From contig JAHFSY010000008.1 of NCBI GenBank assembly GCA_023269615.1, positions 68,052-132,051 of the forward strand: 64,000 bases of DNA, in the 5' to 3' direction. The stretch's first letter is position 1; each line of letters starts with the position of its first letter. Position numbers and translations under genes: made by a program. Source of the DNA: Verrucomicrobiota bacterium (GTDB lineage: Bacteria > Verrucomicrobiota > Verrucomicrobiia > JABWAM01). A model generated the notes under the pieces. The model was not told the origin of the DNA and made no database searches. It saw nothing but the letters and a program-made list of their open reading frames with translations. This document shows, piece by piece, positions 39,536-61,549 of the stretch.

Positions 39536-39587
39536 GAAATCAAAAATTACCAGACCACCCCGATTTGTCACCCCAAAACTGGTGTGG

Positions 39588-39793
39588 AAGCACGGATGCG
39601 GAGCCCTGGGTCCAGTTTCTCCGCAGATTAACGCAGGATCACGCAGATTTCTGAACGGCATTCAACCGTGCCATTTTCAAGCGTCACCTCGGTGGCGGTT
39701 GAAAATGACACGGTTGGGATCAAGGGCAGGCTTTGCGACTTTGCGACTTTGCGCGAAACCTTCTGAAAATCTGCGTCCATCTGCGAAATCTGC
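39588..39793. repeat. ~200-bp nested imperfect palindrome with GACTTTGCG direct repeats (MITE-like)
   Basis: Outer arms CTCCGCAGATT...CGCAGATTTC and GAAAATCTGCG...ATCTGCGGAG; inner arms CCGTGCCATTTTCAA and TTGAAAATGACACGG; three copies of GACTTTGCG; then CTTTGCGCGAAAC. Confidence 0.55.
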
Positions 39794-39826
39794 GGAGAAC
39801 CCGGGACCAAGGGCTCCGGTCCACAC

Positions 39827-40273: not shown

Positions 40274-40365
40274 GGGATTGGGGGCGTTGGATGAAGGAAC
40301 CCTAGATCATCCCACGGAAAGTTTCAAAGAAAAAGGCCTCCATCGAATACCGCACCTTCATCTTT

Positions 40366-41496: not shown

Positions 41497-41660
41497 GGGT
41501 GAGATCAGCTACAAGCCATAAGCTTTAAGCTGTAAGTTTCTGAATTCGGATTTGTTCTCTGCATGGTTAAAATCATTCGAAGGGCAAGTCATTGATCTGG
41601 AATAATCATATTTTCATAAAAGCTTATGGCTTAAGACGTATAGCTTACAGCTCTTTCCCC

Positions 41661-42995: not shown

Positions 42996-43065
42996 TGGGT
43001 TGGTCTAAAATCCAGTGAATTCTGTAAATTCTGTCAAAAAAAAATCAGGAGTCCGTAGAGACAGA

Positions 43066-43824
43066 CTACTTTGCGGGGGTCTTCTTCGAGCCGGCCAGCG
43101 TGTCGGTCGTGTCCTTCAGGACCTTGTTCGGGCCCACATAGTTGCCTCCCACATAGCTGTCGGAAACCACCTTCCCCTCCGCATCCAGCAATACCAGGCA
43201 GGGGATTCCGGGGCCGCACAAGGGCTGCAGCGGAGATCCCTTGATTTCCGAAAATTGAACGGCGCTCCAGGGCATGCTCGTCTCGTTCATGTACTCCGTC
43301 TGTTTGGCTTCCGACTCGTCGCTGCTCACGAAGATCAGGTCCAGGTTCGGCGATTTGTTCGCGTTATAAAACTCCACCAGCTTGGGAGTGAAGGCGCGGC
43401 ACGGGGGACACCAGTGCGCCGAGAAATAAACCAGCACGTACTGGCTGCTGGCGATGTGCGAGAGACGGTCCGCGGACAGCTTCTGGCCACCCGCCGCAAC
43501 CAGCGAGTCCCGAACGTCTTTGTAAAGCTTCGACGCCCCAAATCCCTTCACCGCCTTGCCGCCGCCCTTGCCGACATCCGACCCGAGGCACAACGCGGAA
43601 ATGACCTTGCCATCCGGAGCCTTGAATTTCGCAATGACCATTCCATCCGAAGCCACCGTGTCACCCACCTCCAGGTCACTCCCCGCCTTGAACTCCCCGA
43701 TCTGCTTGGAGGAATTACTGATGTCGAACGCGGGAACGGCTTGCTCGCAATGAAACGTCCCGGCGCGGGCAATTCCAATCCCGAGGCAAAGCAACGCCAG
43801 GATCACCCCATGTAGCTGCTTCAT
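43066..43824 (-). CDS. secreted thioredoxin-fold protein (TlpA/ResA-like thiol:disulfide oxidoreductase)
   Basis: Signal peptide and a WCPPC CxxC motif in a thioredoxin context. Confidence 0.7.
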   Translation of the reverse strand: MKQLHGVILALLCLGIGIARAGTFHCEQAVPAFDISNSSKQIGEFKAGSDLEVGDTVASDGMVIAKFKAPDGKVISALCLGSDVGKGGGKAVKGFGASKLYKDVRDSLVAAGGQKLSADRLSHIASSQYVLVYFSAHWCPPCRAFTPKLVEFYNANKSPNLDLIFVSSDESEAKQTEYMNETSMPWSAVQFSEIKGSPLQPLCGPGIPCLVLLDAEGKVVSDSYVGGNYVGPNKVLKDTTDTLAGSKKTPAK

Positions 43825-43829
43825 GGCGG

Positions 43830-44267
43830 CTACTTCTTGAGCTTCTCCAACTCGGCCACAAACGCCGAAGGCCCGCCCTGCATGTAACCAAGCTGGCCGA
43901 TTTGTTTTCCCTCGGAATCCAGCACGATCACCGTCGGAAAACCCTCGACCTTGTATTCCTGCATCAGCTTTTCATTCTGCTTCGTGAGGAGCTGGGTGAG
44001 CTTTTTCTTCTGCGGAAAGTCGAGTTTCAGGAGAACAAGATTCTTGTCTGCGTATTCCTTGAAATCCTTCTGGTCAAAAACCTCCTTGTCGAGCTTGATG
44101 CACCATCCGCACCAGTCCGACCCCGTGAAATCCATCACGACCATCTTCTTGTCAGCCTTCGCCTTTTCAAGCGCCTTGGCGTGGTCCGTCATCCATCCAT
44201 CATCCCCCGCCATGAGAGAGGAACTAAACACCGTCAAAGCAAGCAGAGTCATAAACCGATTTTTCAT
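43830..44267 (-). CDS. secreted thioredoxin-like protein
   Basis: Signal peptide MKNRFMTLLALTVFSSSLMA and a WCGWC motif. The ORF extends to 44336. Confidence 0.65.
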   Translation of the reverse strand: MKNRFMTLLALTVFSSSLMAGDDGWMTDHAKALEKAKADKKMVVMDFTGSDWCGWCIKLDKEVFDQKDFKEYADKNLVLLKLDFPQKKKLTQLLTKQNEKLMQEYKVEGFPTVIVLDSEGKQIGQLGYMQGGPSAFVAELEKLKK

Positions 44268-44360
44268 AAAGGCCTTTCGATTGAATGTTGTATCGGGGTA
44301 GCCTAAACGAGAAAGCAGTCCTGTCAAGCATCCCAAGGCTTACGCATCTAAGAACGGGAA

Positions 44361-44390
44361 GCCACGGATGAACACGGATGAAACACAGAT
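44361..44390. repeat. solo copy of the CACGGATGAAACACGGAT motif (GCCACGGATGAACACGGATGAAACACAGAT)
   Basis: It lies upstream of the thioredoxin-like gene and downstream of the giant gene. Confidence 0.5.
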
Positions 44391-44427
44391 AAGCCAGTGC
44401 TTGGCACGCCAATGGTTCCCACAAACA

Positions 44428-47400
44428 TCATTCCTTGGCCCCCGCTTGTTTCAGGGCATCTGCAATATCCGCGCGCTTGATCCGGATGGCGATGGAAAGC
44501 GGCGTTTCACCTCTTTGACTCCGGGCGCGGGCGTCCGCGCCGGCCTTGAGCAGTAACCGTACGATCAGCAGGTCTCCCTGTTCCACCGCAGCCATCAACG
44601 GGGTTGTCCCATCGGAATCAGATACGTTCGGTTTAGCCCCCTTCTCCAGAAGCAGCATAAGGAGCTCAGGATGTTTGCGCGTGATGGCGCTCAGGAGCAT
44701 CCGCCCTCCCAAACCTTTTACGTCCGCCCCCGTGTTGATCGCCGCTTCCGCCTTCTCATAACTTCCCTCCGTCACGGCGGCATCCAGGTCCGTGGATGCC
44801 TTAAACAACACATCCCCGCTTTGGGCACCTGCCTTCTTGAGAATCTCCGCGACTTCAGGGTGCCTCTGCTGTCTGGCCACATCCAGGGCTGTGCAAGGCG
44901 AAAAAATCGCGCCATTGTCATAGCAGGCGAGAAAGTCGGGGTTGGCTCCCTTGGAAAGCAGCAGTTTCACGTTTTCCGTTGCTCCGAAGGCGGCCGCATT
45001 GAAGATCGCGGTGCGTCCCCCATCGCCGCGCGAGTTCACATCGCCGCCCTGCTCAATCAAGTATTTCAACCCTTCGGATTTCTGTTGCTTGACAATTTCC
45101 TGCATGGGCGGCCCCGTCTTCGCGCCCTTGGAGATCAGGAATTTCGCAATTTCCCATTGTTGATTCAATACCGCAATGCAAAGCGGCGTCAGTCCTTCAA
45201 CCGTGCTTTCCGTCTCATTGTAAGCCATGGGCGCATCCAGTTGCGAACCACGGTCAATCAAAAACTTCGCCATCTCGAGATGTCCATTTTCCGTCACGGT
45301 ATGGAGCGCCGTGCAACTTTTGTTTGTCTTTGAATTCACGTTGGCGCCATGGGCAAGAAGCGCTTCCACCACTTCGGGATGGCAGCCATCGGCCGCAAAC
45401 ATCAGCGGCGTGCAGCCGATCCTGGACCTCGCATTTACATCCGCACCCTTTTCCAAGAGCAACTGAACCATCTCGAGGTGCCCCGCAGTTGAAGCGAAAA
45501 TGAGCGGCGTCCAATCATTCTCATTCCGCCCATCCACCTTCGCCCCCTTTACCAGCAACTCTCTGACCCCAGCCAGGTCCCCTTTCTGGGCGGCGGCAAG
45601 CAACGCCATGCCCAGATTTTCCGCAGTCACCTTCACCCCGGCCTTCTCCAACATTGTCATGATTTCCGTCTCGTTGTCCCTCTTGTTGTCCGGAGCCGTC
45701 CCTTGCGCGATGGAAAGGGCGTTCTTCCCATCCTTGTTGCTGACATTCACATCGGCACCGGCCTCGATCAGCACGCGAGAGATCGAGAGATTGGAGGATT
45801 CCACGCCGGCGAGAAACGGGGTCATTCCCTCGGCGTCAACCGCATTGAGGTTTGCGCCCTTGGCCAGCAGGAACTCAACGCTTTCCAGGTTGCCATGCCT
45901 TGCGGCAAGGATCAGAGACGTCGAGTTCTTCCCGTCGTGAGCGTCCACCTGGGCGCCACGGTCGAATGACGTTTTCAACTTCGGCACATTACCCGTTTCT
46001 GCGGCGTCCAACAGGGCCTCATCCGCAGTCTCGATAGGCGGGACGGATTTCGACAGGCCCGATTGGTGCCACCACTGCTCCCACAGGGCATAATGATCAC
46101 CAAACGCCTGGCCCGTCAGTTTCTCCAGGGCGTCAATGAGTTCATTCTGCACCGCCGGCTTGTTATACACGATAGAACCGTTGAGAAACGTGCTGGAGGC
46201 ATCGTCCGGCCTCCAAAACACCTCCAATAAATACGGAATGGCCGCCGGATCACCGATCCGGCCCATGGCCCCGGACACTTTCTCCTCGGAAAAAGCGTCT
46301 CGGGTCAGCGGTTTTGCGACAATGGGAATCAGCCTCTTCTCCGGGAAATACTTTCCGATATTGTCAACGACTTCTCGTGCGCGGGGGTTTTTCGCCGCGT
46401 CCCGCATGGTTTGATCCAGATAGGCCAGGGCATCCGAATCACCCGCCCTGCACAAGACCGCCAGCAGGATCAAATCCGCATCGTAACCGTCCTTGTAACT
46501 GCGGGACGATTTGACGATGGAAATGATTTCCGGGTCATAGTCGCCCGCCATGAGCAAATCCAATGCCGCCTCGTTGCAAGGCGGGGAATTGCGATCATTC
46601 AAGATGGCCCGAAGGCGGGGCTTCGCTTCCACGCCGCCCAGCAAAATCACCGCGCGAACGGCCTCCTGACGCACTCCAACATCCGGATCGCCGAGAAGCA
46701 CGGCCACCTGATCGAGATGATCCCTGCTTTTCAGCTTTCCAAGTTGTCTCACGGCAATACCCCTCACACGGGGTTCCGCATCCGACAAGTACCCGAGAAA
46801 GTCGGGAACGAATGATTTCAAGCAGATCTCGCCGAGGACATCCAGCGCCTCGGCACGCGCGTCCCCACTCTCGGAGCGGCTCGCCGCAATCTTGATCAGA
46901 TAGGGAACAGCCCTCTCCCTGCCTTTGACGTCCGGGTAGCGAAGGCCCCCAAGCAGAAACCGGCGTCTTTTCTTATCACCTCCCGCGTCTTGAGTAATCG
47001 CAATGAATTCATCCACATGGCCTAGACCTCCTTTCCCTCCGGAGGTTGTCACAAGCATACTTGCCTCAAATTTCTCCAGGGAAACCATGTGGGAAGGCGC
47101 GGCATGGTTGAAGCTGCGAAAATCCTCAATAGGAAGGGGCAGCACCTCGCGGGGAACGAATAAAATACACTTGTTTTGAGGGTCATATACCATGCTGGGA
47201 ATTTGCCCGTTGAAATCCGCTTCCATTTCGATGGAAGACAAGGATCTTCGGAGCACCGTCCCGTTGTCCCTCGACAACTCGAAGAGTTCGCCAAGGGAGT
47301 TGCCCACGTAAATCCTCCCCCCCAGAGCCACAGGCACGGCAATGGGTGTCCAATCCTCAAACTTCCACCGGACCTTGCCCGTGGCACGATCCAGGGCGTA

Positions 47401-50400
47401 GAGAACTCCGTCCAACATGCTCGGAAAAAGAATCATGTCCCCATCGAACACGACACATGCGGCCAGGACATCAAGGTCCGTGTGCGTTCGCATGATATCG
47501 TGCCGCTCCTTCAGGTAAGGACGCCCCGGGTGGGCATCATGGCTCCACAAGACCGTCTTGCCCGTTGAGTCCCTGTATGTCAGCACTCCGCTCTCCGACA
47601 CATCATACTGGGATGCACCCTCCTGTCTTTCCGGATCAGGGACTTTTGAGGTCACCGGCAACGGATTTCTCCCGATTGTCCCTTCCGCAGTGGCTGTCAT
47701 GGTCACGGGCACTCCAGCTTTGAAGTTCAATATCGCCAAACAACCCTGTCGAATCACATCTGCCTGGTCTCCCTTCACCGTCTGTTTCTCAACCGCTTTG
47801 AAGTATTCTTCAGCCTTTTCATCGTTGCCCGAGACCCGATGCATCATCCCCAACGCTTGAAGTGCTTGCATGCATTCCAGCGTGTTGGGATGTGCCTGCA
47901 CCACTTCCTCAAGCTGTTTTGCCATCTGTTCCTGTTGCGGATTCAGCTGGGCGGCCGCGCTTGTCTTGGAAGGTTTGCGCGGGACGGATTTGGAATTCAA
48001 CACCATCGAACAACTCTCGCGGATCTTGTCCGCCTTTTCCCCTTTCACCGCCTGTTTCACAACGGCCTGAAAGCATTCCGCGGACTTTTCAGCGTGCCCC
48101 ATCCTACGATGCATCCACGCCAGCTTTTCGAGCGCTTGCATGCATTCGAGCGTGTTGGGATGCGCTTGTGCCACCCCTTCAAGAAGTTTCATCACCTGTT
48201 CTTTTTCCGCGCTCGATTCGGCTTTCTCGGCAGCCATCATCACCACTTCAGGGTCGCTGGTGCCGATGGAGAGAAGTTCCTTCAAGGCCTTCCCCGCCTG
48301 GATCGGTTTCTGTTTTGAAATGTTTTTGCTTACCGCCTTCAACAGCTCGATCTTCCGGGGATTCGGTGATGTACCCATCAAACGGATGATGGCAGCATAA
48401 GAAGGGGTCAAGGTATCAATCACCGGCGCCCGGTTCCACGCTGGCGATGGAGGCGTGATGACCCATGGAAGGTTCAGATACACACGGAGCGCCGCCGCAC
48501 GATCTCCCAAGACTTCGTACAGCCTTCCGCACTCATAAGAGGGGGTTTTGACCCTGCCGAGCGTTGCCAGCGCGTCACTTGCCCTCCCCAACTCCTGCTG
48601 GGCCCGGGCTAGGTTGAACCTTGCGATGTCCGCATCGACTCCGCGCTTCGCACGATCCGCCAGGGCCCTCTTCCACAATTCCTCCTCCTCTGTGGTCCTC
48701 TTGAGTCTTCTCAAAATTCCACCCGCGGCTTCATAGTATGGCCATGGGTCATCCTTCGCTTCCGCAATCTTCATTCCCTTGTAAAAGCTCGACAACGCCT
48801 CTTCATCCTCCTCCTGCTTCAGGTACTCGGTGCCCATCTTGAAATGATAATCCGGAGTGTCCGGAGAAACGTACGCAGCGGTTTTCACCTCCTTCATCTT
48901 GTCAGCACCCCCGGTGTAAATTCTCGACTCGAGCCAGCTCATGAACGGATTTCGTGCGGCGTCATCCCCGGCGCGCGATGGTTTTCCCAAGGCGGAGGCC
49001 AGTTGTCGGCCCAGCGCGTCAAGATCATCCAGCTTGCCCTCGACATCCACCACGTTGAGCAGGGCCCCTTTCTCCACGTCAATCAGACGGGCCGAGATGG
49101 CGATTTTCCCCTCCTTGAGCCCGTAAAACCCGCTGACGATGGCGTTGGCCTTGAGCAACCCGCCCAGCTTCAACGCCGTCGCCTCGTCCGCAACCGCCTG
49201 AATCCCCTGCTCCTTGAGGACGGATTTGATTTTTTCCCGCTCCACCACCCTCATGGTTTTCCCGGATGACAACGCCGTGATCAGCACATCGTCAATCGCC
49301 CCATCAGACAACGATGCCCCCTCCAACGTCAGCGGATGAAATCCGGTGACCGCGATGGTCTGGACCGGCAACTGCTCCTCCCCGCGCTTCGCGGCGGAAT
49401 CTCCCCCCTCCACAGGAAAACGTTTTTTTATTTCATCCAGCAACATGGAAGCTGTTTTCTCCTCGTCCATGTTTTCCACTGGAACACTCACCAACCGTTC
49501 CCGCCTCGAATTTTTGAAATCATCCATCCAGACGTCCAGAACACGCGAGTAGCCCGCATTCCGTCCCCCGACGTGCAGGACCAGGTCTGCGGTCAACGCG
49601 TTCTTGAAACTCTTCACCTCGTCACCCTCCGCCTCGGAACCCAGCTGGGCCAGTTGCTTCTCATCGAACAGGGAGGATGCCGTGGTTCTTTCCACAAGTT
49701 CGAGTCCGGGAGTGTTACTGAGATATTGAAGAAACTTGGCGTGAGCTGAATTCACGCGTATATCCGCGCCAGCATCTGAGACCAGCGACACACGCAAGGG
49801 ACGCGCCGGGGTCGGCACCGCAATCACCGGGTAACCGCTGAACCCGGGAATCATCCTCACCCGCACGGGCAGGTTGTGCTCGTAGGCGCCCACGTCCGCA
49901 AGCCAACTCGTCGCGCGCGTCACGCCGGTCACTTCCAGTGTGTAAAAGTACGCGGTCCCGTTACGGACATCCTTGTCCACATACTCTGTCATGTTGGCCC
50001 GGGTTCGAAAAATCTCACGGTCCGGAGAAACCTGGAGCTTGTTGGCCCGTATCGTCGCATGACTCTGATCCGTGCGCCGGAGCACGAAGTAAGGACCCTC
50101 CGCCCAGTCTTTTTCATTCCATGGGAAGGAATCCCAACGCAACCGGACCTGTCCATCGTCCGCCCATGCGACCAATCCCGTCGGCAGCGGGTTCCTCACC
50201 GCAGAAACTGTCGCGGTCCGCATCTCCTTCTTGTCCGGGCCGCCCCAGTGGAAAACATAGTCGCAACGCTCGGAAAACCCAGGCCACTCGTAATAATTCT
50301 CATTCTGCCAGTCATTGCGGTCCAAAAATTTCCCGAAAATCCCTCGACGACCCTGGACCTGACTGTTGATTTCAAACGTCCAACCCTTGTGACCCAACGT

Positions 50401-51603: not shown

Positions 51604-52571
51604 TCGGGCGCACGGTTTTTGAGCGATTCCTGTCGCTCGGCCTCATTCTCGACCTCCTCAATGACTTTCATCACCTCGGGATGTTCATTCATGCTGGCAT
51701 GCTTGTGGGCCGAACTTCCATCCCGGTCGGTTTTGCTCCAGTCGGCGCCCTTGCCGAGGAGATACTTCACGATCTTGACGTGGCCTTCCTGCGACGCAAA
51801 CATCAAGGGCGTCTGCCTGAGCTGGTTCAGGGCATTGATGTCCGCCCCCTTGTCGATCAAAAACTCCAGGACTGCCGGATGATTGTTCGACGCGGCGATG
51901 ATTGCAGCCGTGTTGCCGACGTCATTTCTTCCCTCGAGATCAGCCCCGCCGGCAACCAGGAGCTTCACCACCTCCAGATGTCCGTTCGCCGCGGCCGCGA
52001 CAAGTGGGGCGATCCTGCCTCCCTTGGCGCTTGCATCCGCCCCCTTGGCGAGAAGTAGTTTGGCCATTTCCACGTTTCCCGTCTGAGCCGCCATGTTCAT
52101 CGCAGTGCCGCCATCGAACTCGATGGCCTTGGGATCGGCCCCCTTCTCGAGTAGAAATTCCGCGATGGCGAGATGTCCCTGGTTGGCCGCCATCGCCAAC
52201 GGCGTCGATGCCTTTGCGCCTTTTGAATTCACATCCGCACCCTTCGCCACCAGGAGCTTCACAATTTCCATCTGGCCGATGAACGCGGCCTGAGCAAGAA
52301 CGCTGCCTCCCGTCTTCCGCTTCACATGCACATCCGCGCCGGCGGAGATCAAGACCTGCGCAACTTCCAAATGTCCATACTTCGCAGCAAGGCAAAGAGG
52401 CGAACTCCCCTCTTCATCCTGGACATCAATCTTCGCACCTTTCTCAAGCAGGATCTTCACCTGCGCCGCATCCCCGTCCTTCGCCGCCGCAAGCAGTTGC
52501 GCATCCTGATCCTGCCCAAACAAAACGCCCGCAGCCAGGACCAGAGCGAGGAATACGATGCAGGCTTTCAT
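51600..52571 (-). CDS. secreted ankyrin-repeat protein (323 aa)
   Basis: Signal peptide MKACIVFLALVLAAGVLFG, then 8-9 ankyrin repeats. It overlaps the giant gene's start by 4 bp. Confidence 0.85.
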   Translation of the reverse strand: MKACIVFLALVLAAGVLFGQDQDAQLLAAAKDGDAAQVKILLEKGAKIDVQDEEGSSPLCLAAKYGHLEVAQVLISAGADVHVKRKTGGSVLAQAAFIGQMEIVKLLVAKGADVNSKGAKASTPLAMAANQGHLAIAEFLLEKGADPKAIEFDGGTAMNMAAQTGNVEMAKLLLAKGADASAKGGRIAPLVAAAANGHLEVVKLLVAGGADLEGRNDVGNTAAIIAASNNHPAVLEFLIDKGADINALNQLRQTPLMFASQEGHVKIVKYLLGKGADWSKTDRDGSSAHKHASMNEHPEVMKVIEEVENEAERQESLKNRAPE

Positions 52572-55500
52572 CGTTTGCCTCCCCCGGTTTTTTCACGAAA
52601 TTCCTGTTCCGTGACGGTGTCGGAAACCCACCGGCTGGGCGGAATGGAGAGGAGCTGTTGTTTGTCCACTTCCAGAAGCGGGCTGATGAGATGGGACAAC
52701 GGGCCTTCGAGACCAATCCATAATTTCCGACTGGAAACCGCCAGTGAGGACACCCGCCGGGGAACGGCAAAGCATCCCACCCAACGGCCGCTTGGCTTGT
52801 GGAGGAGATATACCCGATGTTGTGCTTTTTCGAAGATGATCATCGAGTCCGTCTCGTCGCCCCCGCTCCCGGTTTGATTCCACCGTTCGCCGTTCGTCGT
52901 CGCCCCGACCCACAGGAACTCACCGTCGCTGGCCAGCGCGGTCACCGACCCCTGCAGCCGTGTAAATGGGTAAGTCCCGGCGGGCAACTTCCCGCCCTTC
53001 GAAAATTGCGCGATCCGCTCGACGGTTTTTGGCTTCTCCCAGATGCCCATGTCGGGATCTGAAAACCATGTCTGGATTTTGTTCCTCGTGGGGTTGTAGC
53101 GGATGAGACCACCGGTGATTCCAAGCCACAAACCAGAATCATCCTTCTCCACCGCATATAGAAAGGGAGGCCATTTCCCCGCGTATGACTCCGCGGCTGT
53201 TTTCGGCCGCAAATACCCCTGGAGCAATTCCCCGTCCAGATTGGTCCACTTTCCGGTCTTCAGATCCATTTTTAGAATATTTGCATCCCGCCATTGCGCT
53301 ATTTGCGACGACGCCCCGACGATCAGACTCTGTTCAAAAATCCCCATTCGCTGAATTTGCGGCAGGACTTTGCTCTCACAATACACACAGCGATCCACCA
53401 CCGTCTGGTCCACATCCAGCCGCTTCCACGTGCCAGCCTTGGGATCATGGACGTTCACCAATCCGATCTCAGGCTCCCCGCCGGCGAAATACAATCTGCC
53501 GCCCTCCTCCGCCCCGGCGAACATCAGCGGGGAAACCACCCCTTCCTTGTCGCCAAACCGCCTCACCTTGAAATCCCGGTCCACGCTCCACACGCCGCCA
53601 TCCATAAGCGTCAACCACATCTGCCCCTGATACGGCGTCATCGAGGTCACCTTCGACTTGCAGCCGATCTTCTCGGAGACGGGGGCCAGGTCCCGCCCAT
53701 CCTCCCCGCAAATCCAGAGCGAATCCTCCACGGAGGACTCAATCAAGTAGGCCAACTGGAAGTTCAGTCCCGGGCTTGAATTCCGGAAACCCTTCCTCCC
53801 GCTGATCCACAACCGGTTCTCATGAAACAACAGCGTGACGATCCCTGTGATGGGCGGTTTCGAGGGAAAAACCACGGAACGAACGGGGGCATCCAGCACG
53901 GGCGGGTGAAAATCAAGCGTCACGAGTTCCATCGGAGGCGCGGGCGCGGGCGCGGGCTTGGGTGGCATATTCTTTTCCTCGATGACCACGGTATCTCTGT
54001 ACTTTTTAGCCATCTCCGCACCTTTCGCCGTCGCGTCTACGGCGGTGAATGTCTGCTGGATTCCCTTCATATATTCCTGATGATAATATGACCGATCAAA
54101 ATCCGCCGCGGTCGACTTCCCTCCTCCCTGGAGCGCGGTCTGGCGCATGTAGGTTTCGTGCGCGAGAAGAAAGGGCCAGAGCGCCTCGACCGCGCGGGCC
54201 CTCAGGCGGGCGTCCCCGATTTTGAACGCCGTGCGCATGTTCTGCTGGAAGTTGGGGAGGGCGGAGTAGCGCTCCTCGTCGGGAATCCCCTCCCGCCCGG
54301 CGACTTCCTTGCTGATCAGGATGACCTTCTCCCCGAATTCCCTTAAAAATTGCTCCCGCCATTTTTCGAGAATCTCGGGCGGCGCGTCCCTCGGAAAACC
54401 GGAAACATCGGAGTTGTTCGGCGCGTCGCATGCGAACACAAAACTGGCCAGCAATCCCACCGAGCGCACGGCCGCCATGCTATCGAAATCCGGGGACTGA
54501 ACACCGTCCAGCCCACCCATCGGAAACAATCGCGCGAGAAGTTCCCCGTCCACCGTCGAAGGGGGATGATATCCAAACCGCGCCAGGAACGCGTTCCACC
54601 GCAGCAGCCTTCCCCAGTAAAATCCGAATGTGTTGGGATCCTCACTCCGGTTCCTCGCGATCGCATCCCCGCCCTTGAGTGTTCGATACCAATCCCCCTC
54701 GCAGAAGATCAGCTTGCGGTTGATCTCGTAGGACTCCGGCTCGAAGAAGCGCGCCGCCACATACATGTTCAACGCCTGCCGCCAGAGCCTCTGGCCGTCC
54801 TGCGTCCGAAAAAGCGCGGGCGAACTGGTGAACCGCCCCTCAATGTCCGTCCCGCGCATCACCAGCTCGCGCGCGACCTTGTGACGGACGGCGTCGGCGG
54901 GAGCCTGCTTGTGATAAGCCTTGATCGCGTCTGCCAGATGAGCGGCGAGTTTTTGTTTGAGCCCCTTCAACTGGGCAACGGTGCCGGTTTCGGCAAACGT
55001 CTGGATCTCTCCATGCCCATCCCAGATGTTCATCGTGGCCTTGACCGGCGTCTGTTCAAACGAAACATCGTTGCCCACCTTGTCTTCCGCAAAATCGCCC
55101 CATACAAACAGGTCTGCAACTTTTTGCCATGCATTGGCATCGGCTTCGACAAGGCCGCCCACCACCAGGTCCGCCTCGTCGGAGGATTCCGACGCCTTCG
55201 GAAAGCGGATCACACGCGCCGATTGGGAAGCTGCCGCCGTTTCCTGGAATGCGGCCAGCAACTCTCCCTCGAAATAATCCAGACGTCGGGATGCGTCGCT
55301 ATTGCTGAAAAACAGGGGCGCCACCACCAGCTTGTTTCTGACCTGCTCAAGTTTTTTTCGCGCCTCTTCCAGCGCCTGCTTCGACAACCCGACCGCCGCA
55401 TTCACGTCCTTACCCGAGATCGCGAGCGGTTCCTTCTCCGACCCGCTGATCGGAAGTGTTTTTTCCGCCAACACGTCCGCGTGATCCAGGTCAACGACCT

Positions 55501-55867
55501 CGATGCGCAGAAGCCGTCCCTTGCCCTCTTGAATTTCGAAATGCCCGAGGATGAGCAGGTCCGCCTTCAGCCATTTGCCGATGCGCAGGGCGGTCGCCTT
55601 CGAATCGAACCCGCTCACGTAATAATTCAGCTCGTGGTCGGCGGCCTCCAGTTGCGACCGCTCCACCCACTCCACCCCGGTCTTCTCCTGCGACAGCGCC
55701 GCCTGGAGAGCCGTGGAAAAGGTGGAGGCGGCGACGGAACTCCGGTAGGAATTATCGTCCACCGAGAATTCCCCGATCGCGACGCGGAGAGGCTTGGCGG
55801 TTTCCGCGGCGCAAGCCGATTCCAGCATCACCCCGATCGCCATCAAGGACATCGCAACCCATTTCAT
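52568..55867 (-). CDS. large secreted protein (1099 aa) with N-terminal CsgG-like domain
   Basis: Signal peptide. CsgG-like motif (LRVAIGEFSV...VEWVERSQLEAADHELNY). The remainder is unassigned and may be a beta-rich or repeat region. It overlaps the flanking genes by 4 bp on each side. Confidence 0.6.
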   Translation of the reverse strand: MKWVAMSLMAIGVMLESACAAETAKPLRVAIGEFSVDDNSYRSSVAASTFSTALQAALSQEKTGVEWVERSQLEAADHELNYYVSGFDSKATALRIGKWLKADLLILGHFEIQEGKGRLLRIEVVDLDHADVLAEKTLPISGSEKEPLAISGKDVNAAVGLSKQALEEARKKLEQVRNKLVVAPLFFSNSDASRRLDYFEGELLAAFQETAAASQSARVIRFPKASESSDEADLVVGGLVEADANAWQKVADLFVWGDFAEDKVGNDVSFEQTPVKATMNIWDGHGEIQTFAETGTVAQLKGLKQKLAAHLADAIKAYHKQAPADAVRHKVARELVMRGTDIEGRFTSSPALFRTQDGQRLWRQALNMYVAARFFEPESYEINRKLIFCEGDWYRTLKGGDAIARNRSEDPNTFGFYWGRLLRWNAFLARFGYHPPSTVDGELLARLFPMGGLDGVQSPDFDSMAAVRSVGLLASFVFACDAPNNSDVSGFPRDAPPEILEKWREQFLREFGEKVILISKEVAGREGIPDEERYSALPNFQQNMRTAFKIGDARLRARAVEALWPFLLAHETYMRQTALQGGGKSTAADFDRSYYHQEYMKGIQQTFTAVDATAKGAEMAKKYRDTVVIEEKNMPPKPAPAPAPPMELVTLDFHPPVLDAPVRSVVFPSKPPITGIVTLLFHENRLWISGRKGFRNSSPGLNFQLAYLIESSVEDSLWICGEDGRDLAPVSEKIGCKSKVTSMTPYQGQMWLTLMDGGVWSVDRDFKVRRFGDKEGVVSPLMFAGAEEGGRLYFAGGEPEIGLVNVHDPKAGTWKRLDVDQTVVDRCVYCESKVLPQIQRMGIFEQSLIVGASSQIAQWRDANILKMDLKTGKWTNLDGELLQGYLRPKTAAESYAGKWPPFLYAVEKDDSGLWLGITGGLIRYNPTRNKIQTWFSDPDMGIWEKPKTVERIAQFSKGGKLPAGTYPFTRLQGSVTALASDGEFLWVGATTNGERWNQTGSGGDETDSMIIFEKAQHRVYLLHKPSGRWVGCFAVPRRVSSLAVSSRKLWIGLEGPLSHLISPLLEVDKQQLLSIPPSRWVSDTVTEQEFREKTGGGKR

Positions 55868-57507
55868 TCGAGACCTCCATTCTTCCTCAACAACGCTTTC
55901 ATTTCCGCGCGCCCAAGTTTTCCAGCCAGCGCAAGCGGCGTGCGGCCCTCCGCATCCTTCGTATTCACATCCGCTCCCGCCTTGATCATGGCCTCGACCA
56001 GGCTCGCGTTCCCGTATCGAACGGCGCGATGAAGGGCGCGCTCCGTCGGGCCATCCTTCGATGGGCTTGACGTCACGGGCGCGCCCTTGGATACATAGTA
56101 GCTGGCGATGGCCACGCTATTGGAGCACCATGGAAACTGCGCGTAGTGGAGGGACAGATCGAGCGGCGAATAGCCCGCCGAATCGCGCTCGTCAACCTTT
56201 GCGCCTTTCTCCACGAGGAATTGAACCCGGGTGAGATCATCCTCGGCGGTAGCCTGAAAGAGCGGATTCGGCAACTGAAACCCCTTCGCATCCACGGACT
56301 TTGCGCCGGCCTTTCGCAACGCGTCGGCGATTTCCGCTCGAAATCCATTCTCGGCGTACGCCAGCGCCGTGGCGCCACTCTGGTCCCTGCCCTCGACGCC
56401 GGCGCCCTTCTCCAACAGTAAGCGCACAGCTTCAAGGCTCCCGCTCCTTGTGGCCGCGATCAGCGGGGTGGCACCCTGGGCGTCCGGGGCATCCGGCTTC
56501 GCGCCCTTCGCGAGCAAAAACTTCATCATTTCCGTCTGGCCCAACGATGCCGCCATGGCAAGCAACGGGACGCCCGCTGCTGTCACTTCGTTCGGGTTTG
56601 CTCCCCTCTCCAACAGGAAGCGCACCACTTCGGCCCGGGGAGGGTTGGAAAAGAAAGCGACCTGCAGAAGGCTGTTACCCCCGGCATCCTGTTCGTTCAC
56701 ATCCGTCCCGGCATCCAGAATGGACTTTAATCCGGACACGTTGCCCGATTGAGCGGCCTGATGAGCGGAGTGGACCCTCGCAAACGTCTCGATGATCGCC
56801 CTCACCTCGGGATGATGGCCCCGGTCGCACTGACGTATGGCCGTGCCTCCGTCCTTGGCGACTTTCTTCCAGTCAGCACCGTGCTCAAGGAGAAGACTGG
56901 CGATGTCGCCGTGGCCCTTCTCGGCGGCAGCCATCAAGGCCGTCTGGCCGAGTTCGTTCTCATAATTGACGTTGACTCCTTTGTCGATCAAGAGCCGGGC
57001 AATTTCCAGGTGTCCCATCAGAGAGGCGTGGTCCAACGCGGTGGCACCATCGTACTCAATGGCCTTGGGGTCGGCCCCCTTCTCCAGCAAAAATTCCACA
57101 ACGGCGAGATGTCCCTTGTTGGACGCCATCGCCAGCGGCGTGGATGCCTTGGGACCTTTGGCATTCACATCCGCTCCCTTCGCAACCAGGAGTTTCACAA
57201 TCTCAAGGTGCCCACCCAGGGCGGCATTGGCCAGAATGCTCCCGCCCGACTTCCTTTTCACCTGCACACTCGCACCGGCATCGATCAAAACTTTCACCGC
57301 TTCCAAATGTCCCTCCATCGCAGCAAGGCAGAGAGGCGAGCCCCCTTCTTCATCCTGGACATCAATCTTCGCGCCTTTCCCAAGCAGAGCCTTCACCTGC
57401 GCCGCATCCCCGGCCTTCGCCGCCGCAAGCAGTTGCGCATCCTGATCCTGTCCCAACAAAACGCCCGCAGCCAGGACCAGGGCAAGAAATGCGATGCAGG
57501 CTTTCAT
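55864..57507 (-). CDS. secreted ankyrin-repeat protein (547 aa), paralog of 51600..52571
   Basis: Its N-terminal ~150 aa are nearly identical to the 323-aa protein, including the signal peptide. About 14 ankyrin repeats. Confidence 0.85.
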   Translation of the reverse strand: MKACIAFLALVLAAGVLLGQDQDAQLLAAAKAGDAAQVKALLGKGAKIDVQDEEGGSPLCLAAMEGHLEAVKVLIDAGASVQVKRKSGGSILANAALGGHLEIVKLLVAKGADVNAKGPKASTPLAMASNKGHLAVVEFLLEKGADPKAIEYDGATALDHASLMGHLEIARLLIDKGVNVNYENELGQTALMAAAEKGHGDIASLLLEHGADWKKVAKDGGTAIRQCDRGHHPEVRAIIETFARVHSAHQAAQSGNVSGLKSILDAGTDVNEQDAGGNSLLQVAFFSNPPRAEVVRFLLERGANPNEVTAAGVPLLAMAASLGQTEMMKFLLAKGAKPDAPDAQGATPLIAATRSGSLEAVRLLLEKGAGVEGRDQSGATALAYAENGFRAEIADALRKAGAKSVDAKGFQLPNPLFQATAEDDLTRVQFLVEKGAKVDERDSAGYSPLDLSLHYAQFPWCSNSVAIASYYVSKGAPVTSSPSKDGPTERALHRAVRYGNASLVEAMIKAGADVNTKDAEGRTPLALAGKLGRAEMKALLRKNGGLE

Positions 57508-57538
57508 CTGGATGAATTTGTCGTCGCAAATCCACCCG

Positions 57539-58471
57539 TTATTTGGCCACCAACGGAATCATCCGCTCGGCCAGTTCCTGTGCGGCTTTCTGGAGGGCGG
57601 TCTTCGCGGCGATCTGTTCGGAAAGGTCCACGGCCACGCAGGTTTGACGGTCCACGGCCAGGATTTTTCCGGTTGCCTTGTCGATTGCCTTCAGCTCCAC
57701 GCGGCCTTTGCATGACACCAGGTTGCCTTTGCGCATTCCGAATTCGCTCAATGCTTCGCCCTTGAACTCGATGTCCGCTTTTCCGCCCGTTTTGTCATCG
57801 ATGAGGGTGAAGCCGCATTTCTGCAGGATGAAGCTGATCTCGGTCTGCGCCGCCGGATCAATCGTGATGCCTCCGAAATGACGCTCGGGGATGTTCACTT
57901 CCACGGTTGGAAGTTTGTCGGCCTTGATGGACTTGCGGATCCGCTCGATCCGGTCCTCGGGCTTTTCCACCTTGGCCACGAGGTCCTCGGTATTCTTCGC
58001 AACGGTGTCGGCAATTTTTTTGGCGAGGTCTGTCGCGCCGTCGGCGATGGAGCCGGCTGCCGGCATTTTCGTCACGGCCCCGTACACGCGGCTTGTCTCC
58101 GTGCCGATCACCTTGGCCACCATCATCGTCTCCTTGTCCACTTTGAATACTTTTCCCGTGATGAGCACCTTCGCGCCGGTCAGGTGTCCGACCTTTGCCG
58201 CGGTCTCGGGCTGGATCGTTCCCGAAAGGCCGAGTTCCTGCTCGCCCAACGCCTTCTCCAATTCCGCGCGTTCCACGGTGATGATCCGCGCGTCGGCGGA
58301 AAGGTTCGCTGTCACGAGGTCCGACACTTTCGCGCCCAGATCGCGCGCGTCGCTGTCGGTGGATTCAAAATTGAAGACGGCGACGGTGAGGATTTCATCC
58401 TTCGCATGGACGGTGAGGGCGGCCAGCGCGAGAGCGGTGGCGATGAGGAGGAATGGTGATTTGATTTTCAT
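57539..58471 (-). CDS. secreted CsgG-like domain protein
   Basis: Signal peptide MKIKSPFLLIATALALAALTVHA. Motif LTVAVFNFESTDSDARDLG...IITVERAELEKALGEQELGLSG, typical of the CsgG/LpoB-like fold. The ORF extends to 58585. Confidence 0.55.
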   Translation of the reverse strand: MKIKSPFLLIATALALAALTVHAKDEILTVAVFNFESTDSDARDLGAKVSDLVTANLSADARIITVERAELEKALGEQELGLSGTIQPETAAKVGHLTGAKVLITGKVFKVDKETMMVAKVIGTETSRVYGAVTKMPAAGSIADGATDLAKKIADTVAKNTEDLVAKVEKPEDRIERIRKSIKADKLPTVEVNIPERHFGGITIDPAAQTEISFILQKCGFTLIDDKTGGKADIEFKGEALSEFGMRKGNLVSCKGRVELKAIDKATGKILAVDRQTCVAVDLSEQIAAKTALQKAAQELAERMIPLVAK

Positions 58472-58523
58472 GGGATTACCTTGATGGATTTGATTTTTGT
58501 AAATGGGAACGCAGAAATTTTTT

Positions 58524-58636
58524 GCCACAGATGGACACGGATGAAACACGGACTTGTTGGCGCTTGCCACGGCAAGCGCCGTCATGCTGAATCAGCTTGC
58601 TGAGCATCATCCGTGTAAATCTGTGTTGATCTGTGG
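58524..58636. repeat. MITE-like element with inverted terminal copies of the CACGGATGAAACACGGA motif
   Basis: GCCACAGATGGACACGGATGAAACACGGA at 58524-58552 and its inverse ATCCGTGTAAATCTGTGTTGATCTGTGGC at 58608-58636. They flank the hairpin GGCGCTTGCCACGGCAAGCGCC. Confidence 0.55.
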
Positions 58637-58659
58637 CTGTTTTCATTCTTTTGCGGAAA

Positions 58660-59661
58660 TCATTTGCTTGGGTCGGAAAGGATCGTGTCGGGGCTTGTGG
58701 CAATGCGGGCCAGCTCGAGAAGGCGGAGCTGGGAGAGGGGCGTTTCTGCGAGATCGGAAATCATCGCGGGACGCGCCAGCACGAGTACGCCGGCGCCCAT
58801 CCGCGTGGCACTCGCCGAGAGAGCGGCGTCGCTGAAGGGCTGGATCCACACGACGCCTACACCTCGCTCCGCCAGCTTCTTTACATTTTCACGGAAACCA
58901 GATGGCATTGTATCCTTCGTGGGAAATGGGCCGAGGATGGCGAGCTTTCCGTGGAATGCGTCGAAGCTCGTCCCCGCCGTGAGATCCTCGACCTCAACCT
59001 TGAGCGCTTCGAGGAGTGGTTTCATTTTTCCCGATGGATCCCAGATGCCGATGGGCTTGTCACCCCCGAGCGTCTTGAGCGTCTTGAGGGCATCGGCGGG
59101 ACATGCAATCAGGTCGGTTTTTCCGAGACGTCCATCCTTGTCATCCGTCCATTGCAACTGGAAGCGCAAGATGGTTTTTACCTCGGGGCAGTTCACCTCG
59201 AAATTTTCAAGGACGGTCTGGCCGGCGAGGATTTCAAGTTTTTTCCAGCCTTGGACCTCGCCCACGGGGGCCAGCGAGGAGGAGCTGGCTTGGAAGAGTC
59301 TCGTGCGAATCTCCGTTTCGGATTTCTGGCCGCCCCGGTTGTGAAACGTCACATGGATCGTTTGCGCCTTGCCGGCAAAAACAACCTGCGGAGTTTCATC
59401 AGGAACGAGTTCGATCTGTGCGTGGGTGGCGAGGGGCAAGATGAGAAGAAGGCATGCGAACACGGTTCCGAAAGGTAGGGCGCGCTCGCCGAGCGCGCCG
59501 TGGGGTTGCAGGGAAAAGAGCGACTCTACCAAATTTGACGCCTTCTCCCCAATACGGCGCGCTCGGCGAGCGCGCCCTACCAGGAATGTGGATTGAAGTG
59601 GGTGATTTTTCATGAAAACCTGATGGCTGAGAGCTGATGGCTGAGAGCTTCTTCCGATCAT
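58660..59661 (-). CDS. secreted hypothetical protein
   Basis: Signal peptide FGTVFACLLLILPLATHA. No recognisable domain. The start is uncertain because the 5' region contains palindromic repeat 59474..59581. Confidence 0.45.
   Translation of the reverse strand: MIGRSSQPSALSHQVFMKNHPLQSTFLVGRARRARRIGEKASNLVESLFSLQPHGALGERALPFGTVFACLLLILPLATHAQIELVPDETPQVVFAGKAQTIHVTFHNRGGQKSETEIRTRLFQASSSSLAPVGEVQGWKKLEILAGQTVLENFEVNCPEVKTILRFQLQWTDDKDGRLGKTDLIACPADALKTLKTLGGDKPIGIWDPSGKMKPLLEALKVEVEDLTAGTSFDAFHGKLAILGPFPTKDTMPSGFRENVKKLAERGVGVVWIQPFSDAALSASATRMGAGVLVLARPAMISDLAETPLSQLRLLELARIATSPDTILSDPSK
59474..59581. repeat. palindromic repeat of the GGTAGGG...CCCTACC family (variant with 26-bp arms)
   Basis: Arms GGTAGGGCGCGCTCGCCGAGCGCGCC and GGCGCGCTCGGCGAGCGCGCCCTACC, separated by 56 bp. 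Confidence 0.65.
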
Positions 59662-60251
59662 ATGGATGTGTCGAGCTTCTGCGCCTCGATGTGAAAGCTT
59701 TCGCCGGGCTTGCGGGTTTCCTTGCTGTGCCAGTAGAGGGATTTGCCCACGACCATCACGTTTCCTTGTGCATCCAGGAGCACTTCGTACGTCTTCCCGT
59801 CGAGCTGCACCTGCTGCCCGCTAAAGGTGATGACATCGTGGCAGTTCTTCCCATCACAAATTTTCAGAAGGAGCGGGGCGGACGATGGCGCTTCCTGTTT
59901 GTCGGCAAGAACGAGACGGACGCCGTGCTCGTCCGAGATGATGGCGCGCACCTGGTTGGGAAACAGGGAGGCCACTTCCTTGAATAGCTTGCGGTTTTGC
60001 GCAAGGGGGCTTTCCGTCACGCTTTTGGGCATTCCGTGCCAGTGTCCAAGCGCGAAGCCGAGGATGAGGCACGCGGCGGCGAAGCCAAGTCCCCAGGAGA
60101 AGGGAAGACCGCGACTTGTTTCGGGGGGGCGTTCCGCCGTCTGCAGGCGCGCGAGGACGCGGGCGGGGAAATTTTCCCAATAGCCGGCGGAGCGTTCCGG
60201 CACGCGGACGGAGCGGAGCAATTCGTCGAGTTGGGGATCGGATGGTTTCAT
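59658..60251 (-). CDS. putative anti-sigma factor (single-pass membrane protein)
   Basis: Short N-terminal cytoplasmic region, one TM (FAAACLILGFALGHWHG), and a C-terminal extracytoplasmic domain. Its start ATG overlaps the sigma-factor stop (ATGA). The ORF extends to 60368. Confidence 0.55.
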   Translation of the reverse strand: MKPSDPQLDELLRSVRVPERSAGYWENFPARVLARLQTAERPPETSRGLPFSWGLGFAAACLILGFALGHWHGMPKSVTESPLAQNRKLFKEVASLFPNQVRAIISDEHGVRLVLADKQEAPSSAPLLLKICDGKNCHDVITFSGQQVQLDGKTYEVLLDAQGNVMVVGKSLYWHSKETRKPGESFHIEAQKLDTSI

Positions 60252-60775
60252 GCGGGGGCTTGTAGCAGGCGTTTCAACTCCCTTTTGGCGATGAACAACC
60301 GCCACGAAACGGTGGTCTCGGAACATCCAAGCGCCCGGGCTGCGTCGGCGTGGTTCATTCCTTCGCACAGCGTGAGAACGACTGCGGCCCGCTGTTTGGG
60401 TTTCAATTGGAGAAGCGCCTGCTGGACGCGTTCCGATGCGCCTTCGTGATCGCGGGGCGCTTCGGTCACCGCGCCTAATTCCTCGTGGAAACGTTCGCGG
60501 CGGTCATGGCTCTTCCTCCAGTTGAGGCACTGGTTGACGGCGATGCGATGGAGCCACGAAGCGAAACGGGCATCGCTGCGGAACGAGCGGATCTGGTGAA
60601 AGGCTCGGATGAAGACTTCCTGCGCAAGGTCCTCGGCGTCGCTGAGGGAACCCGTCATGCGGTAGGCAAGGGAGTGGATCATGCGTTGGTGGAGTTGGAT
60701 GAGTTTCCCAAAAGCCTCATGGTCGCCCTTCTGGCTTCGTCGGATCCAATCGGTTTCCTGGTCGGGCTCGGCCAT
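60248..60775 (-). CDS. ECF (group IV) RNA polymerase sigma factor
   Basis: Region 2 (DLAQEVFIRAFHQIRSFRSDARFASWLHRIAVNQCLNWRK) and region 4 HTH (ARALGCSETTVSWRLFIAKRELKR). Start chosen at MAEPDQE; the ORF extends to 60940. Confidence 0.8.
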   Translation of the reverse strand: MAEPDQETDWIRRSQKGDHEAFGKLIQLHQRMIHSLAYRMTGSLSDAEDLAQEVFIRAFHQIRSFRSDARFASWLHRIAVNQCLNWRKSHDRRERFHEELGAVTEAPRDHEGASERVQQALLQLKPKQRAAVVLTLCEGMNHADAARALGCSETTVSWRLFIAKRELKRLLQAPA

Positions 60776-60958
60776 GGGTTGGGATTTACCTGATATGACA
60801 ACTGAAAACGACGTATCCTTTGAAAAAAATGATGGCCAATGCACAATTATGAAATCCAATTTTCTTGCTCTTTGGCTGAAGGCTGGTAAAAGTTGGGGAC
60901 ACCGCAATCCGTACACTGATCGTGCGTTGCGGCTTTTCAATCAACCGAAAGCAACATT

Positions 60959-61549
60959 GTGAGCGAATTCTTTTTCTGGCAGGCCATCGGTTTCATGGGT
61001 GGAGTCGTCTATTGCAGCTTCTTTGAATGGACGCTCCACAAGCACATCATGCACACGAACCTGAAGTGGTTCGACTACCCCTTCCAGGCCCATGCGGTCA
61101 CTCATCACGGCATCTTCAAATCGGATCATACCTATCACCTCCAGGAACCAGCAGACCGCAAGACCGTCCCGATGGCATGGTGGAATGGTCCGGTCATGAT
61201 CCTGCTTCATGTCCCCCCCTTTCTGCTCGTGCAGTGGCTGGTGGGGCATGGCATCCTTTGGGGCGGCCTCCTCGCGATGAGCGCCTACTACGCCACCTAC
61301 GAATACATTCACTGGTGCATGCACGTGCCCAAGAAGCGCAATGTGGAACGCTCAGGAATCTTCTTCCGCCTGAACGGACACCACCTGCTTCATCACCGTT
61401 ACATGAACAAGAATCTGAACGTGGTGCTGCCCCTCGCCGACCTCATGCTCGGCACGCTCGTTCCGCGCTCACCCATTTCCTTCGCCCAGGCGCGCGGCCC
61501 AACCATCCCCAACGTCCAGCCTCATTTTGGCGCGCCCCAGCCCGGTTGA
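60959..61549 (+). CDS. fatty acid hydroxylase / sterol desaturase superfamily membrane protein
   Basis: Histidine boxes HAVTHHGIF, HWCMH and HHLLHH. Several TM helices. Confidence 0.8.
   Translation: MSEFFFWQAIGFMGGVVYCSFFEWTLHKHIMHTNLKWFDYPFQAHAVTHHGIFKSDHTYHLQEPADRKTVPMAWWNGPVMILLHVPPFLLVQWLVGHGILWGGLLAMSAYYATYEYIHWCMHVPKKRNVERSGIFFRLNGHHLLHHRYMNKNLNVVLPLADLMLGTLVPRSPISFAQARGPTIPNVQPHFGAPQPG

Follow-up and report, generated by a model that had tools for sequence, protein, structure and literature searches.

The 64-kb window analysed here, by which we mean the whole stretch of DNA at its full length, belongs to a 279-kb metagenome contig of a Verrucomicrobiota bacterium and contains a gene cluster headed by a sigma factor of the extracytoplasmic function (ECF) type. 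In this study we show that the cluster is an autoregulated ECF unit with conserved, co-regulated extracytoplasmic cargo, composed of two exported proteins (g3 and g4) and of giant proteins that share a CsgG-like module with g4. Ten consecutive open reading frames (ORFs), g1 to g10, all on the minus strand, span positions 43066-60775. The ORF list confirmed the coordinates and gene order proposed in an earlier interpretation of the letters alone (hereafter the sequence-only reading), and Pfam upheld nearly every domain assignment made there. Nine of the products possess a signal peptide or a transmembrane segment, so that the extracytoplasmic location claimed for all ten holds for these and fails for the sigma factor, which is cytoplasmic. 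Four-base ATGA overlaps join g1/g2, g2/g3, g5/g6, g6/g7 and g7/g8, that is at most five where six had been claimed, and the other spacings are 188 nt (g3-g4), 31 nt (g4-g5), 160 nt (g8-g9) and 5 nt (g9-g10). The g2/g3 overlap hinges on ATG 59661 being the start of g3, and is doubtful because the alignment with homologues of g3 does not begin before about residue 55-65.

Gene g1 (60248-60775, minus strand) encodes an ECF sigma factor of 175 residues with sigma2 and sigma4 regions (Pfam Sigma70_r2, 7.5e-21; Sigma70_r4_2, 6.2e-12), scoring 98.5 bits against TIGR02937 (cut-off 42.9). Its relatives in the PDB are SigH, SigW and SigE, at about 1e-20, and it has the build of the ECF class (group 4 sigma70), namely sigma2 and sigma4 only within some 170-200 residues. 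The proposal that such a factor heads the cluster is supported, and the cluster is conserved in related loci. The following gene, g2 (59658-60251, minus strand), overlaps g1 by ATGA and encodes a putative anti-sigma factor of 197 residues. According to the consensus of 64 homologues, g2 is composed of a cytoplasmic N-terminus of about 45 residues, a single transmembrane segment and a conserved periplasmic domain, in which a C-x4-C pair (ICDGKNC in the window) is conserved and could form a disulfide or a redox-sensitive site. The adjacency and coupling of g2 to g1 are kept in most loci, and we infer that g2 is the anti-sigma factor that holds g1.

The product of g3 (58660-59661, minus strand) is an exported protein comprising a signal peptide, an immunoglobulin (Ig)-like β-sandwich and a flavodoxin/ThuA-like α/β domain. 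Its start may be at 59661, 59613, 59532 or 59463, the true one probably being TTG 59532 or GTG 59463, and within the conserved unit g3 is described as a periplasmic protein of 260 residues. No Pfam or NCBIfam family was found for g3, a relaxed Pfam scan being empty at E up to 1.

The next gene, g4 (57539-58471, minus strand), encodes a periplasmic protein of 310 residues starting at 58471, and not of 311 as in the sequence-only reading. It consists of an N-domain (residues 28-160, nt 57992-58390) and a C-domain (residues 189-310), the long strands of which are charged. The signal peptide ends in ...LTVHA/KDE without a cysteine, and a lipobox is likewise absent in 46 of 50 g4 family members. 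The protein matches the Pfam CsgG family (PF03783) at 6.2e-12, with 45.7 bits against a gathering score of 20.8 that is passed by all 50 family members tested, and the match covers only positions 30-105 of the 210 in the model. The AlphaFold2 model of g4 (predicted local distance difference test score 82) displays two domains. Its structural matches were the TolB N-domain (14.0), Chlamydia CT253 (11.8), CsgG (11.8), the Vibrio LPHT-ring basal-body protein (11.1), LpoB (11.1), PelC (10.7), and GNA1162, LptE and TraT (8.7-9.4). Foldseek agrees on the fold, its longest alignment being to FlgT (347 columns, TMq 0.33), and gives low TM-scores to CsgG (0.26-0.31). On the basis of the predicted structure, the CsgG-like module belongs to the periplasmic fold shared by the TolB N-domain, LpoB, PelC, FlgT and CsgG. 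When the g4 family profile was compared with PDB sequences, CsgG was not among the matches; faint FlgT_M matches appeared in two of the 50 family members. An internal duplication of g4 was considered and rejected, the N- and C-domains reaching an hhalign probability of only 1.2%.

Relatives of the cluster were collected by scanning one genome per GTDB species, and the ten window proteins were compared by tblastn with the best 80 loci. The species-level scan gave 153 genomes, nearly all of them titled Verrucomicrobiota, Verrucomicrobiia, Limisphaerales, Pedosphaera or "subdivision 3". Moreover, the relatives of g4 number more than 2400 and come practically all from Verrucomicrobiota subdivision 3, the top 120 being 61-100% identical to it; some of them bear the NCBI names "curli assembly protein CsgG" or "CsgG/HfaB family". 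Among the 80 loci g4 is found in every one, g3 in 77, g2 in 64, g1 in 57 and g6 in 16, and the loci missing g1 or g2 mostly lie on contigs that end early. Across the clade g4 is the most conserved member of the cluster, with 55-84% identity, compared with 44-68% for the sigma factor, 28-54% for g2 and 29-47% for g3. The genes follow the order sigma factor, g2, zero to two module-bearing giants (1100-1500 residues), g3, one to six tandem g4 genes and zero to three giants (1000-1350 residues), and this order was also seen in further metagenome contigs beyond the 80 loci. A bare four-gene form occurs as well, for example in L063 and L086. As delineated by sequence comparison, the conserved unit is g1-g4, accompanied by one to several module-bearing giants. 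The synteny check called for by the sequence-only reading thus finds the ECF-headed cluster conserved in related genomes, whereas the combination that had been taken to define it, ankyrin repeats with CsgG-like modules and thiol oxidoreductases, dissolves: ankyrin genes (g5/g8) are present in two or three of the 80 loci and the g9 and g10 thioredoxins in none. Elsewhere the giants and their small companions contain EF-hand, Sel1, TPR or ankyrin repeats that vary by genome (precomputed Pfam annotation). Five loci (L043, L050, L051, L031 and L048) hold arrays of three to six g4 paralogues in place of giants, located on the plus strand ahead of the g4 match. Some cluster-bearing contigs (e.g. L013, L017, L019 and L026) were deposited as "uncultured Bifidobacterium", "Candidatus Sulfotelmatobacter" or "Anaerolineae", and are probably mislabelled or mis-binned metagenome-assembled genomes.

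An ECF-type promoter lies upstream of g1 (60791-60828, minus strand; 33.8 bits with a position weight matrix, PWM). Its -35 element CAAAGGA (60822-60816) is separated by a 15-nt spacer from the -10 element TTGTC (60801-60797), located 22 nt before the g1 ATG; nowhere else in the 64 kb of the window does a PWM match reach 12 bits. Of 57 related loci, 45-52 have the motif TTTTTCAAAGGAtTTGtcG-N9-TTGTC-N8-GGTAAAAT upstream of g1, with AAAGG at a fixed distance of about 47 nt from the g1 ATG; the promoter takes the form TCAAAGGAtT-N15-TGTC, also written TCAAAGGA-N15-TGTC. Judged from this motif, the ECF unit of g1 is autoregulated. A PWM scan of both strands of the 80 related loci (2.6 Mb) returned 108 matches, 55 upstream of g1 and 53 elsewhere, the latter nearly all within the cluster and on the cluster strand. 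These other matches gather around 94 nt upstream of the g3 reference point. Such a match precedes g3 in 21 of the 32 loci with more than 1 kb (a giant gene) between g2 and g3, compared with 7 of the 32 in which g2 and g3 are adjacent. Because the motif stands before g3 when a giant gene separates it from g2, the sigma factor most likely acts on g3 and g4 directly. In the window, with g3 directly following g2, the results suggest that one promoter can serve g1 through g8, and the PWM scan found no promoter motif in the g3-g4 and g8-g9 gaps.

Some of the tandem g4 paralogues carry their own copy of the sigma promoter motif. In two loci, L041 (position 3702, minus strand) and L063 (2363, minus strand), the opposite strand bears a second copy of the motif 118-141 nt upstream of g1, and the divergent neighbour of g1 may belong to the regulon in some genomes. 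In the window, the divergent gene sharing the upstream intergenic region of g1 (60959-61549) encodes 196 residues without a Pfam match, and the PWM scan found no opposite-strand motif near g1.

The module itself was traced with an iterated hidden Markov model (HMM) of the g4 N-domain, which found exactly three significant copies in the cluster: in g4 (about residues 33-156), in g6 (about 29-151, 4.6e-26) and in g8 (about 750-872, 3.7e-19). This is the count that the sequence-only reading had obtained for its CsgG-like motif, and the module HMM and Pfam together support its CsgG-like and ankyrin assignments. A fourth, degenerate copy in g8 (about residues 595-700) was tried and was not significant with the iterated HMM. 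In the related loci the module is present in 233 proteins.

The first of the two giants, g6 (52568-55867, minus strand; 1099 residues), consists of a signal peptide, the module (nt 55415-55783), a helical region without a family and a C-terminal propeller of the Reg_prop type. The g6 family profile matches PDB 4a2l, the periplasmic propeller of a Bacteroides hybrid two-component sensor, with an E-value of 1.9e-15 across positions 708-999 of the profile. Neither Pfam nor NCBIfam has a family for g6, the relaxed Pfam scan being empty for residues 150-1099 at E up to 1; 24 relatives were detected. The second giant, g8 (44428-51603, minus strand), is a protein of 2391 residues in which an N-terminal transmembrane anchor is followed by about 740 residues without a family, the module (nt 48988-49356; Pfam CsgG 9.2e-09), TPR repeats, a PQQ-like propeller (PQQ_2, about 1350-1451), HEAT repeats (about 1600-1800; HEAT_2 1.4e-18) and ankyrin repeats (1850-2391). 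For residues 1-760 the relaxed Pfam scan was empty at E up to 1, while the N-terminal 1200 residues have 38 representative relatives with E below 1e-30. Five g8-type giants were scanned, and all keep the order module, PQQ propeller and HEAT, with TPR repeats after the module in four and an ankyrin end in three. By these shared features the g8-type giants are a family. Two of three looked up adjoin g4 or g6 homologues, and the locus L091/L092 shows g2-g3-g4-g6-g8, which is the window order without the free ankyrin genes. Within g8, a 221-nt direct repeat (47719-47939 and 47989-48209, 71% identity) encodes a helical segment twice (...AQAHPNTLECMQAL...) and shows a recent repeat expansion in the giant. 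Two g8-like proteins, P0173 and P0175, give a weak match to a double zinc ribbon (DZR) near the N-terminus, with E about 1e-3 and a score under the Pfam threshold; it covers residues 6-36 and precedes the large region aligned with g8, whose own N-terminus before the transmembrane segment is short.

The free ankyrin genes of the window are g5 (55864-57507, minus strand; 547 residues; Ank_2 6.5e-78) and g7 (51600-52571, minus strand; 323 residues; Ank_2 1.5e-64), both encoding secreted proteins. Tandem ANK repeats of 33 residues are found in g5, in g7 and at the C-terminus of g8, with Ank_2 E-values from 1e-64 to 1e-78. The signal peptide and first 170 or so residues of g5 and g7 are near-identical, the proteins share 56% identity over 310 aligned residues and the DNA 77% over 300 nt, a pattern that identifies them as the outcome of a recent event in which part of a secreted ankyrin gene was duplicated inside the cluster. 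The last two genes encode secreted thioredoxin-fold proteins. The product of g9 (43830-44267, minus strand) has a CGWC motif (Thioredoxin_2 1.7e-14) and is called DsbH-like only, since its 131 bits against NF043050 (DsbH) are under the cut-off of 190; g10 (43066-43824, minus strand) encodes a TlpA/ResA-like protein with a CPPC motif (Thioredoxin_8 6.4e-19). From their distribution, g9 and g10 are local passengers outside the conserved system, possibly co-transcribed with the cluster in the window. A weak terminator-like hairpin directly after the g10 stop (43050-43067, minus strand) is a candidate only, and a scan of the region for sigma70 promoters and terminators gave site counts not above shuffle expectation.

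A dispersed intergenic repeat of 26-52 nt (GTGTTTCATCCGTGTnCATCnGTGGC; GCCACGGATGAACACGGATGAAACAC and variants; family D8) occurs four times in the window where none is expected, at 31317-31342 (minus strand), 38339-38364, 44361-44386 and 58524-58549 (all plus strand). Two of the copies occupy the only long intergenic gaps of the cluster (58524-58575 between g3 and g4, and 44361-44412 between g8 and g9). The repeat also accounts for the false lengthening of the g4 and g9 ORFs at their N-termini. It looks like a genome-wide element of the REP (repetitive extragenic palindromic) type. Directly downstream of the cluster lie three paralogous PilT/PilU-like T2SSE ATPase genes (418, 376 and 375 residues; 38405-42788, minus strand), with a gene for a cyclic-nucleotide (cNMP)-binding protein at 39827-40273 among them; this adjacency is not conserved in other genomes. 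The remaining genes of the window, such as MutS, Ser/Thr kinases, a sugar transporter and these three ATPases, are those of an ordinary chromosome, and tRNA-Ser (TGA) at 611-700 (plus strand) is the sole Rfam or ARAGORN match. Horizontal acquisition of the cluster was considered and rejected, its composition showing no anomaly (GC 0.56-0.60 against 0.52-0.63 in the window).

We read the window as an elaborate copy of a conserved envelope system of Verrucomicrobiota subdivision 3 (Limisphaerales/Pedosphaera), in which the sigma factor induces a periplasmic scaffold built on the module; we hold this reading with a confidence slightly above even, and its weakest part is the scaffold step, which we infer. 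In this scheme g1 would be held by g2 and, on activation, would transcribe the cluster from the TCAAAGGAtT-N15-TGTC promoter. The invariant cargo is g3, exported and with its Ig-like and flavodoxin-like domains, and g4, soluble in the periplasm. The variable cargo takes one of two forms: as many as six g4 paralogues in tandem, or at least one giant and often several, exported or anchored in the inner membrane, each fusing one copy of the module to long repeat arms and propellers. These arms are made of TPR, HEAT, ankyrin, Sel1 or EF-hand repeats across the loci, and in the window they are provided by g6 and g8 together with the free g5 and g7. The shared module could serve as an oligomerisation unit, as in the CsgG, PelC and TraT rings and in the FlgT-containing flagellar ring, through which g4 and the giants would co-assemble beneath the outer membrane into a ring or lattice within the periplasm, leaving the variable solenoid and propeller arms to bind envelope or external ligands. 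This assembly is proposed because g4 is more conserved than its own regulator, because it is tandemly amplified where giants are missing, and because several of its best structural neighbours form rings: the CsgG nonamer (PMC4594475), the PelC dodecamer, the TraT decamer and the Vibrio LPHT-ring protein.

Several observations weigh against this reading. The fold of the module is also that of monomeric LpoB, LptE and the TolB N-domain, and does not imply oligomerisation; g4 has no membrane anchor, so that placing it under the outer membrane is conjecture. The putative anti-sigma factor belongs to no Pfam or NCBIfam family and matches nothing in the PDB, a relaxed Pfam scan of g2 was empty at E up to 1, and its weak match to the anti-sigma family NF052375 (E 0.0066) reaches 16.5 bits against a cut-off of 100. 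A giant gene separates g1 from g2 in about five loci, no second promoter was detectable in 11 of the 32 loci with an insert between g2 and g3, and at least one g8-like giant is encoded alone, off any cluster. A bolder version, that of a hitherto unrecognised periplasmic machine of the whole clade in which g4 and its paralogues would form hetero-oligomeric rings bearing megadalton solenoid and propeller arms, including giants of the membrane-coat-like kind known from the Planctomycetes-Verrucomicrobia-Chlamydiae (PVC) group, all built on demand by the sigma factor, is a speculation to which we give rather little credence. If true, the PVC coat-like proteins could be assigned to a definite genetic system with its regulator and to a principle by which they assemble.

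The same genes might instead perceive the signal. We consider it unlikely, though it is the main rival reading, that g3, g4 and the giants are not the output of the sigma factor but its periplasmic sensory input, comparable to RseB with RseA, in which the variable propellers and arms would bind different ligands and control proteolysis of g2. Such a complex would agree with g3 and g4 being linked to g1 and g2 as tightly as the usual accessory regulators, with the well-conserved periplasmic domain of g2 and its C-x4-C pair, and with the g6 propeller, which is of the type that acts as ligand sensor in Bacteroides hybrid two-component systems. There is also a precedent in Thermoanaerobacter, where a TolB-like protein is reported to be a cognate anti-sigma factor (PMC3397946). 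The promoter of the sigma type before g3 makes g3 and g4 targets, which speaks against a sensor, yet autoregulated sensors are targets too. Giants of 1000-2400 residues and up to six g4 paralogues would be a heavy investment for perception, and conservation of g4 above that of the sigma and anti-sigma factors would be unusual in an accessory regulator. A redox role, modelled on AnkB with KatB in P. aeruginosa and put forward in the sequence-only reading, would have ankyrin proteins and thiol oxidoreductases defend the periplasm under the sigma factor. It draws on the position of g9 and g10 after g8 on the same strand, with no motif promoter and no clear terminator in between, on the conserved cysteine pair of g2, on one related locus with a divergent thioredoxin-like gene, and on a glutaredoxin gene close to the cluster. 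Conservation gives the analogy no support, since none of the 80 related loci has homologues of g9 or g10 and two or three have ankyrin genes; Pfam finds neither catalase nor peroxidase in the cluster, and we regard this role as very improbable.

Two further explanations concern the giants and the module. The g8-type giants could shape or tether membranes in an enlarged periplasm as part of a PVC membrane-coat-like system. The architecture described for such proteins, of which nine are reported in Pedosphaera parvula, is a propeller N-terminal to a solenoid (PMC2799638), and a PQQ propeller indeed stands before HEAT repeats in g8 and the five scanned relatives, followed by ankyrin repeats in g8 and three of them. 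This defining architecture is generic, however, g8 has 1300 residues before its propeller, including a TPR solenoid and the module, and most loci use other giants without this order, which leaves the explanation quite improbable. As for curli-type (type VIII) secretion, with g4 as the outer-membrane CsgG channel exporting other proteins or amyloid, the passing of the Pfam CsgG threshold by 50 of 50 family members, the "CsgG/HfaB family" names and the place of CsgG among the top structural matches all seem to speak for it. CsgG, a lipoprotein of some 30 kDa, assembles as a nonamer whose 36-stranded barrel takes four transmembrane strands from each subunit (PMC4594475); g4 is neither a lipoprotein nor does it contain the four transmembrane strands or any membrane hairpins. 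Neither the cluster nor the related loci that were looked up gave Pfam matches to curlin subunits or CsgE/CsgF. With the partial Pfam coverage, the missing lipobox, the charged strands of the C-domain and the absence of curli genes, a curli channel is excluded, and we attach hardly any credence to this mode of secretion. A known anti-phage defence system was rejected too, PADLOC giving only repeat-driven ankyrin matches; the NCBIfam matches to MzaA and to Legionella Ank effectors were likewise repeat-driven and far under the cut-offs.

The scaffold reading applies to a system that is undescribed, real and widespread. The sequence-only reading had known of no described system of this kind, and this statement stands: g2, g3 and g6 have no family in Pfam or NCBIfam, PADLOC recognises no system, and no account of the cluster was found in searches of Pfam, NCBIfam, PADLOC or the literature, including the main text of the ECF classification paper (PMC7826278), which mentions neither CsgG nor Verrucomicrobia. 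The cluster fits best among the envelope operons under ECF control, with a cargo that is new and particular to the clade. An ECF sigma factor with co-conserved partners is usually an entry point to an envelope function, and here more than 2400 copies of the hallmark protein occur in Verrucomicrobia from soil, peat, groundwater and lakes, bacteria for which hardly any genetics exists. The four-gene core, the promoter motif that predicts the regulon and the shared module that predicts binding partners provide handles for experiment. Our analysis also corrects a database habit, that of labelling as "curli assembly protein CsgG" proteins without the features of the CsgG channel. Should the giants turn out to be "membrane coat-like" proteins of the PVC group, this class, debated for so long, would become open to testing through the cluster.

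With CsgG, one of the closest known systems, g4 shares the periplasmic α/β core fold and the motif VAV.F ... VER..L...L.EQ.L, but it lacks the lipid anchor and the transmembrane-hairpin half of the model, and possesses an unrelated second domain at its C-terminus. TM-scores to the Vibrio flagellar H-ring protein FlgT (PDB 3w1e and 8z5n) and the TolB N-domain are low (0.26-0.33) because only one domain superposes, and neither flagellar nor Tol-Pal genes are present in the cluster. Identity with TolB was rejected, no six-bladed TolB-type propeller following the N-domain and no tol-pal operon being found; the propeller of g6 belongs to the Reg_prop type, with some 550 residues between it and the module. 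FlgT, or a flagellar H-ring, was rejected as well, the similarity being structural alone and no flagellar genes occurring at any locus examined. LpoB, PelC, LptE and GNA1162 are outer-membrane lipoproteins, whereas g4 is not lipidated, and the partners of the first three (PBP1B, PelB and LptD, respectively) are not encoded near g4. The g8-type giants resemble the PVC coat-like proteins (Pedosphaera, Chthoniobacter, Verrucomicrobium) in having a β-propeller N-terminal to an α-solenoid and in belonging to the same verrucomicrobial lineage; g8 displays this architecture with a TPR solenoid also ahead of the propeller, and the likeness seen is one of architecture. Modules of the sigmaE-RseA-RseB type share with the cluster a two-domain ECF sigma factor, an autoregulatory promoter, an adjoining single-pass membrane protein coupled through an ATGA overlap, and co-conserved exported partner proteins. 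The cluster differs from them in that g2 has only about 45 cytoplasmic residues without a detectable anti-sigma domain, that its partner proteins g3 and g4 fall into no family described so far, that its regulon contains giant modular proteins, and that it has a promoter motif of its own, CAAAGGA-N15-TGTC.

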